From: Picochlorum sp. SENEW3
Taxonomy: Eukaryota
Assembly (NCBI GenBank): GCA_034226945.1
Contig: CP120463.1
Location: forward strand, 124,001-188,000
Reading direction: 5' to 3'
Length of the DNA stretch: 64,000 nucleotides
Shown here in pieces: positions 47,978-54,547 of the stretch. A model generated the notes under the pieces. That model saw only the letters and a list, made by a program, of their open reading frames with translations. It was not told the DNA's origin and ran no database searches. The stretch's first letter is position 1, and each line of letters begins with the position of its first letter. The position numbers and the translations under genes are program-made.

Positions 47978-48746
47978 TCACACAGTCTTGCAGAGAATAT
48001 CATTCTCATGCAAGACAATGTACTTTTCACCATTTGAGGTCTCCATGGCATCCCCAGCATACTTGAAGTATACAACCTGATCGCCCTCAGACACCTTGAG
48101 AGGCTTTCTTTTGCCACTCTCATCGATCTTCCCTGCTCCACATCGCACAACAGTCCCACTCAGAGGCTTTTCCTTTGCAGCGTCTGGTAAAATGACGCCT
48201 CCCATGGTGACATCACGTTGCTCTGAAATTTTCAACAACACCCTGTCTCCAACTGGCCTGAGCTCTGGAATATCATCAGCTGTAGCACCGGAGCGAGGCA
48301 TAATACCGATGACATCATCCTCCCTGATCAAAATGTGTTCCTCACCCTGGAGCAGTAGATCCGTAGCTCCAAGGCCAAATTTGCTATACAGAATAGTGTC
48401 ACCCTCCTTCAAGGTGAACTCATAATCGCCGGTGGGCAACTTGCCATCTCCAACTGCAATAACATCACCCGAAGTTGGACGCTTCTGGGCTTGGTTAGGA
48501 AGCAGAATGCCACCGGTTGTCTTCTCCTCCAACTCTGCCACCTTGGCAAGGAGCAGCTTTCCCTTGGGCATCACCTGAGAGACACATACGGCGATGATGA
48601 TGCTCGTTATCACAATAAAAAACAATATGAAATATCAATCTGCGTACCTTTGTCACCGTCGGAGGCAATTCCATAGTGGAGGCCCTCACCGACACGGCTC
48701 TTGCTCTAGAAGCAGGGAGAGAACGACAGGAACTGAACGACTTCAT
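47978..48746 (-). CDS. CPN20: Chloroplast co-chaperonin Cpn20 (tandem GroES)
   Basis: Exons 48648-48746 and 47978-48574. Two GroES units (EEKTTGGILLP and PVGDRVL..TMGGVILP). Transit peptide. Confidence 0.95.
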
Positions 48747-48959
48747 GACCACAATGTGCTATTTTAATTATCAAACTATGTAATAATATGGCAGTACAGG
48801 GGATCAGTTCCAGATTTTATGGTCTTTTATTGAAGAATCATCCGGATGGCAATGCACTACAACATGAGAGAATTCCCAGCAGCATATTCGATCTTCACCG
48901 ATGGGTATGGCGATGCATTGAATTAAATCTTACTATAGATACTGAGAGTATTTGAAATC

Positions 48960-49724
48960 ATGCATCGATTCGCTAGCATTGTATGCAGCAGTATGAAGGG
49001 AAAGAAGTTTGTGCTATACGATGTGCCAGTCAGTAATAATGGTGCAAGGATCAGAAATCTGATCTACAAGAAGAAGCTGGATCAGTTTATCGATATCAAG
49101 AGTCCTATGGAGATTGGGGGCCTCAGGAGTGAGACATACAGGCAGTTGAACCCGTATGGGAAGATGCCTGTTCTTGAGATGCCAGATGGTTCAGGGCTTC
49201 CCGAATCTCAGGTTATAGAGAGTTATATTCTTGACAAGTTCAGAGATAATGGACCTAGTTTGATTCCGGATACTGCAGAGAAGAGGGCTTTGGCTGCCCT
49301 GGTGGTACGGATCCATGACTTGTATATTGCACCGATCCAAGGGTGCTTGTACAAGCCTATGGATTCTGCAGAGGAGAGAGCAGAAGGGATCGCACAGATC
49401 GCGATGCAACTGGATACTATCGAGCGGTATTGTACTGGACCATTTATATGTGGATCTGAAATGAGTTATGCGGACACGGCGATCATGCCGACATTTGTGT
49501 TTTTGAATTACATTCTCCCTCGTTTCTTTGGCTGGAAGGACGGAATTTTCCTTGGAAGACCAAAACTTGGAACATGGTGGGATTGTATGAACAAGGATGA
49601 CGATACTGCACGTGTGATCCGAGAAGTTGAATCAGGCTTGGAATCATGGAATGCATCAAATAGATGGGAAGAGAAGGGCATACTGAAAGATGTCTCTGAC
49701 ACAAGGTTCTGTTGGAATCCATGA
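48960..49724 (+). CDS. Glutathione S-transferase
   Basis: LNPYGKMPVL, LPESQVI and GPFICGSEMSYAD. Confidence 0.9.
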   Translation: MHRFASIVCSSMKGKKFVLYDVPVSNNGARIRNLIYKKKLDQFIDIKSPMEIGGLRSETYRQLNPYGKMPVLEMPDGSGLPESQVIESYILDKFRDNGPSLIPDTAEKRALAALVVRIHDLYIAPIQGCLYKPMDSAEERAEGIAQIAMQLDTIERYCTGPFICGSEMSYADTAIMPTFVFLNYILPRFFGWKDGIFLGRPKLGTWWDCMNKDDDTARVIREVESGLESWNASNRWEEKGILKDVSDTRFCWNP

Positions 49725-49746
49725 ATGCAGCTAGGACACATGTGTC

Positions 49747-52370
49747 TTAGGCACTCAATTCCTCCTCGATGATTCTGGCTGCCGATACAGCTGCCTCGAG
49801 ATTATTCTTCGCCTGATTTTTTGCATTTCTAATTTTCTCAAGTTCTCGGAGGAGAGGGGCCTCCTCCTCTGACAAGACAGCATTCACTTTTGTGTAAATT
49901 TGTCTTGCTCTTTCTATTTCTGCCGAGCACGCATCTTTTGCAACATGAGAGGCGAGCTTCTTTGCCGCTTTAGACACAAGGAAGCCACAACCAGCATTAT
50001 TAACGTCCTCATCTGAAATATTCCCTACCCGAGCAAGATATGCTTTGTTCGCTGCCATCCTTGCTTTCCTTGCCAGTTCCAGTGCAGTGTATGACTTCAA
50101 ATCAATGTTTTCTGAGCTGATCCGATTGCAGATAGTATCTGACATTGTATTCTCCTCAATTTCCTGTATGATCTTATTGAGTTTTGTATAAAGATGTGGG
50201 TTGCCTTGTCTTCTCTTCTTCGAAGATGGTATCTGTACTTCAGATTTCTTGGGGCATTTCACATCTGGTACAATTCCATCAAATGTCTTGTACTCCGGGT
50301 CAAAAACATCGTCCTCATCTCTGGCCACGTAATGCCCCCCAATGTATTCCATTCGCGTTAGTGGAGTCGCACACGTGGACTGGATGCCTCCTTTACTCAA
50401 CATTGAGCAATCCCATTGGTCATTTCCACTCGACAGATCAACCACTGTGGAATGTGGCACAATTCTCCACTTTGCGCATAAATTGCATTTCACCCAATGA
50501 TCTCTGTGATAATTTCCTACAAAATCGCTCAAGCGATCCAGCAAAGCCCAGAATTCATCAGTTTGAACGAGTGACTTGTCGACTGGTATATTTGGTTCAC
50601 CATGCTCTTCAAATGCTGAATAAAACTTTGGATACAGACTTTCTCGATTAGCCTTTGCAAGGCAAAAGATTGATATACCGAATCCTATCGGAGTGCTAGA
50701 GTAATCTTTAAACAAAACGGCCATTCGTTTAAGATGCACCCGTGGATAAGGCCTGAGTCTTTGATAAAAGGCGGTGTCAGTTGAATTTCTACAAATGAGA
50801 ATAATTGCAGGAACTGACCCGTTCTCCACTTCATCAATCGCTCTGTTGACGAATCTCCACTGAATTTGAGAGCTAACTGAATAAAATATGGAACTGTTAG
50901 TTATCACCTGACCAAAAGAATGCATGGATCAACACAAAAAGCCATCGTACAATCTGGGTTCAAAATCACATAATATCCAGCCCAAGAATTGGTCAACTTC
51001 AAGCCATTATCCATTCTATCATACAACTTTTCCGCTGGAATATTTGGAGCAACTTTGGAATTTGTACAGGGGTCCAAAAGTTTCAGGATTGACGGATTTG
51101 AAACAGTTGGGCGCTGTAATCCAAACACATCAAATGCAGCTTTAGATATTATCCAATCAGGAGTTAAGCCCATTCTCTCCGTGTTCTCTTCGTTCATATC
51201 CTCAGCATGATCAGAATCATTGTACTCGTTATTCAGATCACAGCAAGGGCATCGCCACATTCTATCTGGCAAATACTGATCAGTTAACGCTGGACAGATT
51301 AGACAGAGAGTATGGAATTTTCTGTCACATCCAGGGCATTTTAGAGGAGCTCCAGGAGCAGAACATTCCTGGCAGATATCCTTATATCGTTTATTTGCAA
51401 CAGTATGCATATCATATAATGATGCTACCCGCTGTAGTTCAGTTCCTCGGTCCTTTTCAGCAGACTGTAGCTCCATAATTGCTAATTTCACAAGCCTGGC
51501 CCTGAAACACCCTCTCTACTGTTGAACGAAAATATTTTGACCTAGTCATGCACAGAAGATACACGTACTTTTTATGTCGCTTTCCCCATAGAGACAGAGA
51601 CTCTTTCATATCAGGATCTGTCTGATCATTAGCAATCCTTACTTGCTTCTGTGAAAACCATCCAAAACTATGTTCACCTGCACCAAAAGAGCGTCAATGT
51701 CAGATATCCGTCAAATCGGCGCTTGGGAAGATGCCCCCCAATGGATGATATCATGAGACGACGACGTGGTTCTGATGCTCACCATAGAACTTAACAAGAT
51801 ATGCACCGGATCTTCTCGTCATCAAGACGTCAGCTAGATCGTCTTTTCGACAGTGTTTGATAGACCAAATTATAGCAGGCCAGTTTCCATGTGGGCCAAG
51901 ATTCACCCAACAGCGTGTGCCAGGCTTGTTTCTCATCTTTTGGCATTCAGACTCAACTTTTTGGATGTGGTCACGTAATGCAGGCCCTTGAAGCGGCATT
52001 GATGGAGGAGGTGTGGGTCTTTTCCAGGATGAATACTGTGTTTCTGCTCGCTGCCGCTTGGTTCGACGTTCAGAGCCTTTTGTTTCAAGGATGTACTCAC
52101 GAACCTGTGTAACAGGCAGGGTGACTCGGATAGACTTGAAATCCGTCATTCGAATTTGAGCCACCATTTGATCGCCATTTGTTTCTACCTTAACCACTGA
52201 ACCCTACATATTTCAGGAGCACGCGCCTTGTATAAGATGGTTGATGTACGTTAACATGTAGATATAGGGTTCCGTACGTGGTGCCTGCCCGGATAGTTTC
52301 CGGAACCGAATTTCTCAAGGATCTCCCCTGGAATCAACACTTCTTTTCTTAAAACACCTGTCCTCCTCAT
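49747..52370 (-). CDS. PWWP-PHD-N6-adenine (phage Dam-like) methyltransferase-zf-CW fusion protein
   Basis: Exons 52278-52370, 51783-52203, 51569-51677, 50951-51501 and 49747-50876 join in frame. PWWP (GNWPAII..YLVKFYGEHSFGW), C4HC3 PHD, MTase (LTPDWI, LDPC, DNGL..W, ILNPDF, STDTAFYQ) and zf-CW (WVKCNLCAKWR..WDC..TC). Confidence 0.8.
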
Positions 52371-52554
52371 TTTAAAATGAATATTAAACTGCGAGGATGC
52401 TGCGACTCCCAGACAGCCTTCAATCGCGTGTGTCGGCAGATTTCCAAACTGGATGTAGACGTTTTGTTTTACCGCATTATTATTACCCACGCCGTGTGAC
52501 ATCCAACTCGGCCGCGGCACAAAAGAGCCTTCTGAATGAATTATAGATGGCTTA

Positions 52555-54547
52555 TTACATATGCGTAGGAAGTTTGTTATAATTCTGGTCAAACACAAAT
52601 GTTTCAAGACTAATCTCAACAGCTGACACAGGATAGGGGATATCAAATGACTGCAGGACTTCTGGGTGCACAACCCCAAATTCACCGACCTTTTGACCCA
52701 TAGCATAAATCGAAGCATGTCTTCCCTTGAAATATGTTTCGCTATCATCCGCTTCCCAAGAGTAAGAAATTCCTTTTTGCACTTTCATCAGGTCTTTCGG
52801 GGATGAGGAAAACTTTTCATGAGGCACTCCCAACACCTGCATCACGCGATTCAACAGTCCATGAACAACTTCAAATCCACTAGTTTTATCGCAATTAATA
52901 GCCACAAGCCTTCGCTCATTCCTCGCACCCACGTCTGTGGTATCATCGATCAAAATCACATCAGAGACCTCGAAGAGTTTCATTGGGAGAGGGGTGTCCT
53001 TATTTGCTCCTGCATCACATTCACACCGTTATCGCGTCTCTAGTCATTAATGTTATTCAAATAGATACAAAGGCGTACCAATCGTTTTGAGCATTCCAGG
53101 GAGCAAAGTAGTCCTACAGACTTCGAATTCTGATGTAGCAGGATTTCCAATTGACACAGCAGCTGTAGGGTCGTCCTCTTTCCTTATATCAGTGAAATTC
53201 TCTTTACGAGAGCACAAGGCCCAAGTCAACACTTCGGTAAAACCAGAGGTAGCACACTCAATCCTCAACAATTCACAAAGTTGTGAAAGTGGATTCTCTT
53301 TTCCTGTTGTCGCAATCATCGGTGGCTCGATGGGGAGGTTGTCATACCCATATGCGATGGCCACATCCTCCATTACATCACAACTATGAAGAACATCACT
53401 GCGAGTGATTGGAGCGAGGACATGTAACGCCTTGCCTTCTGCAGTAGCATCCAGTTGCATTTTCTTCAGCAAAGATGCAGCATCTGATGACCGGATATCT
53501 AGACCAGTGCAGGAATTGACATAATCCATGTCCACATTGAACCGTTTTGGAGACACGTCGGGATAATATGCAGTCTTTCCAGTGGCATCTACCACTTCCA
53601 CTGGCTCAATCTCAAACGGTGTTGAGCAATATTCTGAGAACATTGCACAGACTGTGTTCAGCACTATTTTGGCCTTTGTCAGATCAGTTGCAGTGCATTC
53701 AATAAAAACATCCTTTGTATTCATAGTAATAGCTGATCTTGCACCATTAATCACTGGTGGAAGAGAAAGCACATGTCTATCCGCATCCATGATGACAGGG
53801 TACACCACAGATGACTGAATGATTGGCACATACCGTTTCAGCTTCTGATCATTCGCTGCATAGTACTCCAATAGATCTTTGGCATTGAACTCCCTTGTTT
53901 GCTTTAAAGGAACAAACTTGATGTCTTCTGGTGGAAGGGCTTCGTATGTAAATGGCCCTTTGACAGTAGACAAGTCATGTGTTCCAATGGCCACCAAGGT
54001 CCTCTGTCTGCACAAATTCTGATGAAGCTTGTCTTGCAGATCAATGAAGCTGTTATATCGGGTCGCATCAAACGTAATACCTCGAAGAACAGCACAGACA
54101 ACGAATGGTCGCACGAGAGATGTCTCTGGCTTTACAACCAAGCGTTGCAACTCCTTTCCACTCATGTCTGCTAGTGAGTACTTGGGAGGATCCATTTTCC
54201 CACGAAACACATTGAGGGCTCTGGCAATACCCTCGAGACATAACATATCATATCTATTGGCAGGAATATCAATCTTATAGATAACTTCATCGCTGATATC
54301 TTCCAAGCCTTTCTGGGTAGCCGACGACTGCAGTTCCTTGCGCACAAGCTCCCGCTCTGATGTCACATCGTCAAGCTCAATCCCATATTCGAAACAAAGA
54401 GATTCAAATTCCTCCTCACCTACAAGTGTTCAAACACCATGAGTATTCTCGCCTGAGATCAGTCGCATGGTAGTCAGCCAGAGACGCACTAAATTTCTCC
54501 CCTAAAGCTTCGAAGAGTTTATCTCTGTTCAAACCAACAATCGGCAT
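52555..54547 (-). CDS. FARSB: Phenylalanyl-tRNA synthetase beta subunit, cytosolic
   Basis: Exons 54490-54547, 53079-54419 and 52555-53009. Motifs FEYGIELDD, IPANRYDMLCLEG, QDKLHQN, TRSDVLHSCD and GVVHPEVL. Confidence 0.96.

Follow-up and report, generated by a model that had tools for sequence, protein, structure and literature searches.

The window analyzed here is a stretch of 64,000 nucleotides (nt) from Picochlorum sp. SENEW3 (contig CP120463.1, positions 124,001 to 188,000 of the forward strand), and all coordinates given below refer to it. Its minus strand carries a gene of five exons (49747..52370), which encodes a protein of 767 amino acids (aa) that combines an amino-methyltransferase domain with PWWP, PHD, and zf-CW domains. 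An initial annotation had described the product as a phage-Dam-like adenine methyltransferase that is fused to three chromatin readers and has a variant catalytic motif, and had proposed that it belongs to a histone-guided DNA methylation system. Our analysis confirms the gene and its domains and identifies it, with near certainty, as an ortholog of a chlorophyte family that has been defined before, the 'chlorophyte-type Dam' family 1.

Gene structure, splicing and flanking genes

The coding region extends from the ATG at 52370 to the TAA stop codon at 49749-49747 and consists of exon 1 (52278..52370, 31 codons), exon 2 (51783..52203), exon 3 (51569..51677), exon 4 (50951..51501), and exon 5 (49747..50876), all on the minus strand. 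Exon 4 encodes the PHD finger and the N-terminal half of the methyltransferase, while exon 5 encodes its C-terminal half, the zf-CW finger, the C-terminal helices, and the stop. Assembly of the minus strand by a script yielded a coding sequence of 2304 nt, that is 767 aa plus the TAA stop, with 0 internal stop codons. The four introns (52204..52277, 51678..51782, 51502..51568, and 50877..50950) have lengths of 74, 105, 67, and 74 nt, respectively, and each of them is bordered by GT and AG. Intron 2 splits the PWWP domain, and intron 4 lies within the last codon of motif IV of the methyltransferase. The gene model is based on the reading frame, the splice sites, and transcript contigs, and in addition on Pfam matches for exons 4 and 5 and on the alignment with homologs for exon 1.

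Contigs of public sequencing runs that were aligned to the stretch served as evidence for splicing. In run X2, which is about 99% alike and is labelled 'RNA?', the label being a guess, there are contigs that skip each of the four introns. The skip of intron 4 is exact, from 50876 to 50951, in a contig with a depth of 196, and the skips of introns 1-3 match the boundaries of the model when the alternative cuts stated by the tool (+1, +4, and +1) are used. One X2 contig joins exons 1-2-3-4 and extends to position 52377, which lies 7 nt upstream of the ATG, and a second contig joins exons 4-5. The introns are kept in runs X1 ('probably DNA') and X15 (identical over the whole stretch, and thus perhaps the assembly from which it was taken). 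The peptide encoded by exon 1 aligns with the N-termini of the algal homologs P0014, P0016, and P0030. Because of the splicing observed in X2 and this alignment, the five exons are one spliced, transcribed nuclear gene. This had been proposed from the sequence, including the junction inside the catalytic motif, for which a confirmation by transcripts had been suggested and is now at hand.

It could be argued that the exons stem from separate genes, or that the gene model is an artefact, since the five exons are never found together in one contig, the two X2 contigs both stop inside exon 4, 17 nt apart, and the assignment of X2 to RNA is a guess. However, both ends fall within the same continuous open exon, every junction is of the GT..AG type and preserves the frame, and in many algal homologs these domains are united in a single protein, in colinear order and without indels at the junctions. 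The probability of this alternative is therefore negligible.

Run X7, a declared metatranscriptome of a relative that is 95-99% alike, contains one contig of low depth (51438-51952, depth 2.81) in which intron 2 is removed, with a net skip of 105 nt and six differing letters at the joint, and intron 3 is kept. Keeping the 67-nt intron 3 would shift the frame, and thus the contig represents intron retention or pre-mRNA.

The upstream neighbor on the same strand encodes the beta subunit of phenylalanyl-tRNA synthetase (PheRS beta), with its last coding exon at 52558-53028. The gap between this exon and the ATG at 52370 is about 185 nt (52371-52557), and the genome is compact, with introns of 67-105 nt. 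The downstream neighbor is a convergent glutathione S-transferase (GST)-like gene on the plus strand (48939-49724). The stop codons of the GST-like gene, which ends at 49724, and of the methyltransferase gene (49747-49749) face each other at a distance of 22 nt, and X2 contigs span this junction (49602-49953) without a break; therefore, the 3' untranslated regions of the two genes probably overlap. Beyond the GST-like gene lies a single open frame on the minus strand (47981-48634) with two Cpn10 (GroES) domains (Pfam E 3.9e-49, two stretches), which we take to be the plastid Cpn20-type co-chaperonin of plants and algae. The G+C content is flat across the window (0.41-0.46), and no features resembling mobile elements or viruses were found in the immediate flanks of the methyltransferase gene. 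A scan of IMG/VR with a piece of exon 5 returned four pattern matches and 0 confirmed relatives.

Domain architecture and the fold of the catalytic domain

The architecture of the full-length protein was derived from an AlphaFold model of the homolog P0016, which is based on 45 aligned sequences and has a mean predicted local distance difference test (pLDDT) value of 80.5, and was mapped onto the protein encoded in the window. The model contains a four-strand beta domain (residues 11-66), a disordered linker, the PWWP and PHD domains, the methyltransferase, the CW finger, a short helix, and a helix of 79 residues. Accordingly, the order in the window protein is a small beta domain, PWWP, PHD, amino-methyltransferase, zf-CW, a conserved basic helix, and a long C-terminal helix. 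Pfam was searched with the exon translations and with five full-length homologs (P0001, P0004, P0015, P0016, and P0032).

The PWWP domain comprises aa 122-244 (51393..51933, including introns 2 and 3) and is supported by Pfam, by fold matches, and by the mapping of P0016. With exon 2 alone the Pfam score is weak (E 0.11), as the domain is interrupted by introns 2 and 3, while the PWWP domain of P0016 reaches 30.9 bits and is above the cut-off. The PWWP domains of BRPF1, NSD2/3, and DNMT3 were matched with a probability of 1.00 by the full-length P0016 model. A comparison by eye with the pattern of the aromatic cage of DNMT3A revealed that its first position is not consistently aromatic in the homologs. 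The PHD-type zinc finger follows at aa 247-304 (51213..51386), and its C4HC3 ligand set (aa 251-295) is complete in the window protein. The Pfam score of 20.2 bits is below the cut-off of 24, and the zf-HC5HC2H model, with 21.3 bits, is likewise under its cut-off. In P0016 the PWWP and CW domains pass the Pfam cut-offs and the PHD finger lies exactly at the cut-off, with 24.0 bits. The zf-CW finger (aa 516-563, 50362..50505) is recognized by Pfam (PF07496, E 2.3e-9, 37.5 bits versus a cut-off of 27.5), and its pattern of Cys and Trp residues is present and is invariant across the aligned homologs. Therefore, the predicted fusion to three reader domains is borne out by Pfam, by the ligand set of the PHD finger, and by the fold of P0016.

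The small beta domain at the N-terminus (aa 10-68, 52093..52343, including intron 1) corresponds to residues 11-66 of the P0016 model, which have a pLDDT of about 90. Its look-alikes in a protein atlas are Tudor-, Spin-, or PWWP-like, all with feature scores below 0.9. Judged from the model, the domain is possibly Tudor/SH3-like and might represent a fourth reader-like module, which is to be regarded as a lead only. Two helices are located downstream of the CW finger. The first, TALELARKARMAANKAYL (50035..50088), is a helix also in the P0016 model and contains the motif R-x2-R-x3-N, which is invariant in 22 sequences. The three residues R269, R272, and N276 (exon-5 numbering) occupy positions i, i+3, and i+7 and thus lie on the same helical face, and this basic helix may be an element that contacts nucleic acid or another domain. 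The second (aa 691-767, 49750..49980) corresponds to the 79-residue helix of the P0016 model (pLDDT 70-92) and is a candidate for a coiled coil. A complex prediction for two chains, each comprising the C-terminal 121 residues, gave a median of 0.40, compared to 0.27 for the best control, and no call by the tool. Of the flanking elements that had been annotated, the beta domain and the long helix were thus recovered in the model of P0016, and the coiled coil has the status of a candidate.

The amino-methyltransferase (Dam-like) domain (aa 318-514, 50509..51173, including intron 4) was delimited by its fold, by profile comparison, and by the mapping of P0016. The fold searches were performed with the methyltransferase domain of the homolog P0001, whose identity to the two halves encoded in the window is 85% and 82%. 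Its AlphaFold model has a pLDDT of 86.2 and a predicted template modelling score of 0.84 and exhibits a Rossmann amino-methyltransferase fold, so that the structure prediction that had been recommended as a check had a positive outcome. In an exhaustive VIA-align search of the PDB, the best match was PCIF1 (6irx_A, Z 10.8, root-mean-square deviation (rmsd) 2.9, 145 aligned residues), followed by EcoDam (2ore_D, Z 9.3), T4 Dam (1q0s_A, 9.2), M.TaqI (1aqi_A, 8.6), and M subunits of type I systems (about 8.4). In total, 17 chains had a Z of at least 8, and Mtq2 was found at 7.6. Chains of the MT-A70 type are not among the 50 VIA-align matches listed. Foldseek also placed PCIF1/CAPAM at the top of its PDB matches (6is0_A, E 1.6e-3, probability 1.00, TMq 0.56), ahead of RlmJ, KsgA, and METTL16. 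Among the viral models of BFVD there were 22 matches at E <= 1e-3, the best with 2.5e-9. Five of the ten named entries within the first 15 are phage 'N-6-adenine-methyltransferases', and giant-virus PCIF1-like proteins follow at lower ranks.

The relationship to phage enzymes was also addressed at the level of sequence profiles. A tblastn search of 50,697 phage records returned ten records, all with E-values of 0.6-0.8. Five of them were discarded, because the matches lay under genes annotated as terminase or hypothetical. Two of the four matches annotated as methyltransferases (H1 and H4, E about 0.7-0.8) were carried into the profile comparison, and both of these phage proteins are clear members of PF05869 (1.4e-38 and 5.3e-15). 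Using hhalign, the family profile was aligned to H1 and H4 with probabilities of 94.3% (E 1e-7) and 94.9% (E 4.3e-8), whereas the controls, the reversed sequence and 20 shuffles per protein, did not exceed 5.1%. The alignments pair LLDPC with (L)DP(A/C), NPDF with NPPY, and also the next Trp. The comparison demonstrates remote homology to phage DNA Dam, and we regard the catalytic domain as derived from the phage Dam (PF05869) lineage. It is 'phage-Dam-like' only at the level of remote homology, by profile and fold, and not as a member of the curated Pfam family, because the Pfam Dam model is blind to it. The description in the initial annotation hence holds for the fold and for the kinship of the profiles, and does not extend to recognition by the Pfam Dam model, either for the exons or for the five homologs.

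The phage Dam proteins of the PF05869 type, exemplified by those of Pectobacterium phage Taid and Bacteroides phage LoVEphage (L001, L002), share a homologous core with the domain by profile (94-95%). Apart from (L)DP(A/C), NPx[YF], and the following Trp, an R/N-x-(S/C)-D stretch is aligned, and models of phage Dam proteins are the best viral fold matches of the catalytic domain. In contrast, the phage enzymes are standalone proteins of 163-215 aa with an NPPY motif, while the window gene encodes a multi-domain eukaryotic protein of 767 aa with NPDF that is missed by the Pfam hidden Markov model (HMM).

Variability of motif IV and distribution of the family

Motif IV (aa 389-392) is encoded at 50875..50960. 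The first three residues are specified by the codons at 50960-50952, and removal of intron 4 combines T 50951 with TT 50876-50875 to a Phe codon, which results in NPDF followed by SSQIQWRFVNRAIDE. If the intron were kept, the frame would stop 18 codons past NPD. The homologs carry the same sequence after motif IV and have no indel at the junction. The claim that the intron splits a motif that reads NPDF was thus correct, in agreement with the exact skip in the X2 contig.

In contrast, NPDF is not a special variant of this gene. A census was based on the 93 sequences spanning the motif among 194 family proteins retrieved, and in 92 of the 93 the motif is NPx[YF], with D, E, P, S, or A at the third position. 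The variants are NPDY (19 sequences), NPEY (15), NPPY (14), NPDF (13), NPSY (11), NPPF and NPEF (7 each), NPAY (4), and NPAF (2), and the single outlier, NHCH, is apparently due to a faulty gene model. The canonical NPP[YF] is present in 21 of the 93 sequences, and these lineages share nearly identical motif surroundings with the rest of the family. A quick maximum-likelihood tree was calculated from 73 domain sequences with the third motif residue masked, after removal of fragments of less than 190 aa, the NHCH sequence, and entries with identifiers above P0194. According to this tree the third position changed its state at least 13 times, and between P and non-P at least five times; the tree is rough, as 29 of its 69 inner branches are unsupported and long-branch warnings were issued. 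As close relatives differ at this residue, the comparison of the sequences argues that the Asp of NPDF is one of several residues accepted at a labile position, and does not indicate inactivation.

The Chlorella family itself is split at the third residue, with NPPF in Auxenochlorella and Helicosporidium (P0020, P0044) and NPDY in Chlorella and Micractinium (P0014, P0015). Two abundant marine clusters have NPPY (P0056, 199 members) and NPSY (P0058, 91 members).

Other positions of the domain are highly constrained. The motif-I-like LLDPCTN (51060..51080), which was aligned with the (L)DP(A/C) of the two phage Pfam-Dam proteins, has invariant residues L401, D, P, C, and N in 45 family sequences, and L402 and T are conserved in at least 90% of them. 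Further residues invariant in these sequences are P, N, P, and A of PNIPA, N and P of motif IV, W, R, F, and R of WRFxNR, R, S, T, and D of RNSTD, and F, K, and Y of FKDY. In the 45 full-length sequences the invariant columns are concentrated within the catalytic domain and within the CW finger, a pattern that argues for a working active site.

Among 284 candidates, 66 homologs were identified at E <= 1e-3, and all named ones are chlorophytes, including Chlorella, Micractinium, Coccomyxa, Trebouxia, Volvox, Gonium, and Bryopsis, and also Tetraselmis striata (P0089). An exhaustive profile search of representatives yielded 2058 matches at E <= 1e-3, of which 90 reach E <= 1e-30, and the best 150 of the 2058 all have E <= 8.7e-20. 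At least four classes of chlorophytes have representatives in which the family is conserved.

A clade of 'chlorophyte-type Dam' enzymes was established by Iyer, Zhang & Aravind (2016; PMC4738411), who place it beside PCIF1 in the M.EcoKI/M.TaqI-like group 2. Its family 1 is described there as fused to BMB/PWWP and to ZfCW/PHD-X, as distributed in chlorophytes, and as usually present in a single copy per genome, and histone-guided DNA methylation was already inferred for it (PMC4738411). The hallmarks of group 2 are an N-terminal helix and coils that replace the helices around strand 3 (PMC4738411), and the model of P0001 fits them, with a helix at residues 6-16 and strands at 29-34, 47-50, and 68-71 without a helix in between. 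The window gene possesses these fold features of group 2, the PWWP and ZfCW/PHD domains, and chlorophyte homologs, and it exhibits no essential difference from family 1. It can therefore be regarded, with very little doubt, as a further ortholog.

The initial annotation had mentioned computational predictions of chlorophyte Dam-like PWWP/CW fusions, and this paper is their source. It had also considered the histone-guided system to be without an experimental test, in accordance with our literature searches, which did not retrieve any. The family was predicted computationally in 2011-2016, and its characterization at the bench is apparently absent from the literature; the phrase 'chlorophyte-type Dam' was found in one paper only of the literature searched. 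Our analysis adds the splice in motif IV at the transcript level, the NPx[YF] rule, the failure of the Pfam Dam model to detect the family, the conserved N-terminal beta domain, and the basic C-terminal helix.

A 2026 preprint reports a screen for eukaryotic DAM domains with a Pfam/InterPro model and describes retrotransposon and viral groups and three small horizontally transferred clades, and the PWWP-PHD-CW family is unlisted in its accessible part. This omission fits the observation that the Pfam Dam model misses the family. A paper on DAMT enzymes of Phytophthora (PMC6211444), which shared only the search term PF05869, was set aside as not relevant, as the enzymes described in its accessible part belong to another family.

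Proposed substrate, activity and histone guidance

In the interpretation that we favor, the readers and the Rossmann amino-methyltransferase act together in histone-guided DNA adenine methylation. We assign a probability of about 0.5 to this whole chain, including the DNA substrate. Taken by themselves, an active methyltransferase is predicted with reasonable confidence, and DNA adenine as its substrate with a chance that is slightly less than even. The PWWP, PHD, and zf-CW domains, perhaps together with the Tudor-like N-terminal domain, would dock the protein on nucleosomes with particular states of the H3 tail. The usual ligands of these reader families are H3K4 and H3K36 methylation states. 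The catalytic domain would gain access to nucleic acid in the vicinity, with linker DNA as the most likely target, an adenine would be flipped into the pocket of the invariant Asn-Pro-x-aromatic loop, and the methyl group would be transferred from S-adenosylmethionine (SAM) to N6. The basic C-terminal helix may touch nucleic acid, and the long C-terminal helix may pair.

Such a mechanism would follow a DNMT3-like logic with a catalytic domain of the adenine type. DNMT3A and DNMT3B have a similar order of domains, that is a PWWP domain, a PHD-like (ADD) zinc finger, and a Rossmann methyltransferase, and the best PDB matches of the full-length P0016 model are full-length DNMT3A2/3B3 chains (E 2.2e-6), followed by PCIF1 and PWWP domains. 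In contrast to DNMT3, the catalytic domain of the window protein is of the amino (N6-adenine) type and not of the C5-cytosine type, and the zf-CW finger, the N-terminal domain, and the C-terminal helices are additional; a match to the Pfam family DNA_methylase (C5) was not found on the exons or the five full-length homologs. The other enzyme to be compared is AMT1/MTA1c, which is established as the writer of N6-methyladenine in eukaryotic DNA. Its MT-A70 domain represents another methyltransferase lineage with a DPPW motif, and the exons and five homologs have no match to MT-A70 (PF05063). The proposed product is the same, N6-methyladenine (6mA) near active genes, and according to the accessible parts of the literature AMT1 co-occurs in chlorophytes. 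AMT1 acts with partner proteins, whereas the histone readers are fused to the catalytic domain in the window protein.

Several observations weigh against DNA adenine methylation by an active Dam-like enzyme. The fold evidence has its limits: the Z of 10.8 for PCIF1 is modestly above the value of 7-8 that the tool typically returns as the best one for models without a clear match, Foldseek found no match in the PDB at E <= 1e-3, and the nearest solved fold is that of an RNA cap methyltransferase. Both structure models represent homologs and not the spliced protein of the window itself. The likeness to DNMT3 is one of domain order only, with template modelling (TM) scores of 0.13-0.16 and an rmsd of 21 Å, and it is therefore read as an analogy and not as orthology. 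The Pfam Dam HMM (PF05869) gave no row on four exon translations at E <= 1 and no match at E <= 10 on the five full-length homologs, and a profile search of PDB sequences was null, with two chance rows at E about 1.4. Compared with the classical (D/N)PP(Y/F/W) loop, the window protein has Asp in place of the second proline, and we are not aware of an enzyme with such an exchange that has been tested. Literature searches (Dam-like, 6mA, PWWP, AMT1, Chlamydomonas, PF05869) did not retrieve biochemical or genetic evidence for any member of the family. Lastly, the accessible part of a 2025 paper (PMC12695648) reports robust 6mA only in species that encode AMT1, in all of them mainly in the ApT context and highest with C or G as flanks, in agreement with the initial annotation, according to which promoter ApT 6mA in algae is usually credited to MT-A70 enzymes; no unexplained 6mA signal in DNA now calls for a second writer.

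The main rival explanation takes up the similarity to PCIF1. The protein might be an RNA adenine methyltransferase that is recruited to chromatin and modifies nascent RNA, yielding N6-methyladenosine (m6A) or the cap-adjacent N6,2'-O-dimethyladenosine (m6Am), like PCIF1 does via its WW domain and the tail of RNA polymerase II. PCIF1 (6irx, 6is0) is the top solved match with both Foldseek and VIA-align, its substrate is RNA, an accessory domain recruits it to the transcription machinery, and the fold matches include the RNA enzymes RlmJ, METTL16, KsgA/DIMT1, and METTL5. Furthermore, the ApT 6mA reported so far is already explained by AMT1 (PMC12695648), and PCIF1 and the chlorophyte-type Dam enzymes have both been assigned to group 2 (PMC4738411). 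However, EcoDam and T4 Dam are within about 1.5 Z of PCIF1, the profile kinship is with DNA Dam enzymes of phages, which also provide the DNA methyltransferases that match best in BFVD. Pfam found no RNA-binding domain on the exons or the five homologs, and neither a WW domain nor the PCIF1 family is among the matches. The identity to PCIF1 is 10-14%, and motif IV of PCIF1 is NPPF, in contrast to NPDF in the window. An RNA substrate retains some weight because the closest solved structure is PCIF1, and on balance we regard it as unlikely.

Because of its conservation, a catalytically dead domain is still less likely than an RNA methyltransferase. In this case the fold would provide a scaffold or would read nucleic acid or SAM, and the loss of the second proline would mark the inactivation. 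Motif IV of the window protein does depart from (D/N)PP(Y/F/W), and inactive paralogs of amino-methyltransferases, such as METTL14, are known. Moreover, the related methyltransferase domains of DIRS1 elements were judged to be inactive by Iyer et al. (PMC4738411). In contrast to this view, conservation within the protein is highest in the catalytic domain, little or no variation is seen at Asn, Pro, and the aromatic position of motif IV or at D, P, and C of LLDPC, and the canonical lineages with nearly identical surroundings together with the repeated changes of state characterize the third position as a tolerated one. An active amino-methyltransferase with another target, namely N4 of cytosine in DNA or a glutamine or lysine of a chromatin protein, is improbable. 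The NPPY-type fold is common to N4-cytosine and protein glutamine methyltransferases, in line with the match to Mtq2, and the acidic third residue of the loop might alter the chemistry of the pocket. However, both the profile comparison and the fold searches place adenine-N6 enzymes closest, and nothing specific suggests cytosine or protein as a substrate.

The window gene is thus one more ortholog of a described family, and the histone-guided interpretation of this family is not new. It bears on a field that is now centered on AMT1, the MT-A70 enzyme, as the source of eukaryotic 6mA. The ciliate Tetrahymena reportedly has a de novo 6mA writer. For green algae, the literature searched contained neither a de novo 6mA writer nor an account of how 6mA is targeted to the linkers of 5' nucleosomes marked with H3K4me3. 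The conservation in chlorophytes, the constrained catalytic motifs, and the fused readers of histone tails make the family an obvious candidate for a 6mA writer. Tentatively, and with rather low odds, green algae would have a second writer of adenine methylation that is independent of AMT1, a DNMT3-like, histone-guided de novo enzyme derived from phage Dam, with a loop relaxed from NPP[YF] to NPx[YF], which has been unseen by surveys based on Pfam. This second writer could set the 6mA that AMT1 maintains, or it could write a distinct mark, be it non-ApT, stage-specific, or on RNA. If the enzyme is inactive or directed at RNA, a standing hypothesis would drop out of the 6mA literature, and if it is active, its NPx[YF] loop would widen the accepted catalytic signature of amino-methyltransferases.

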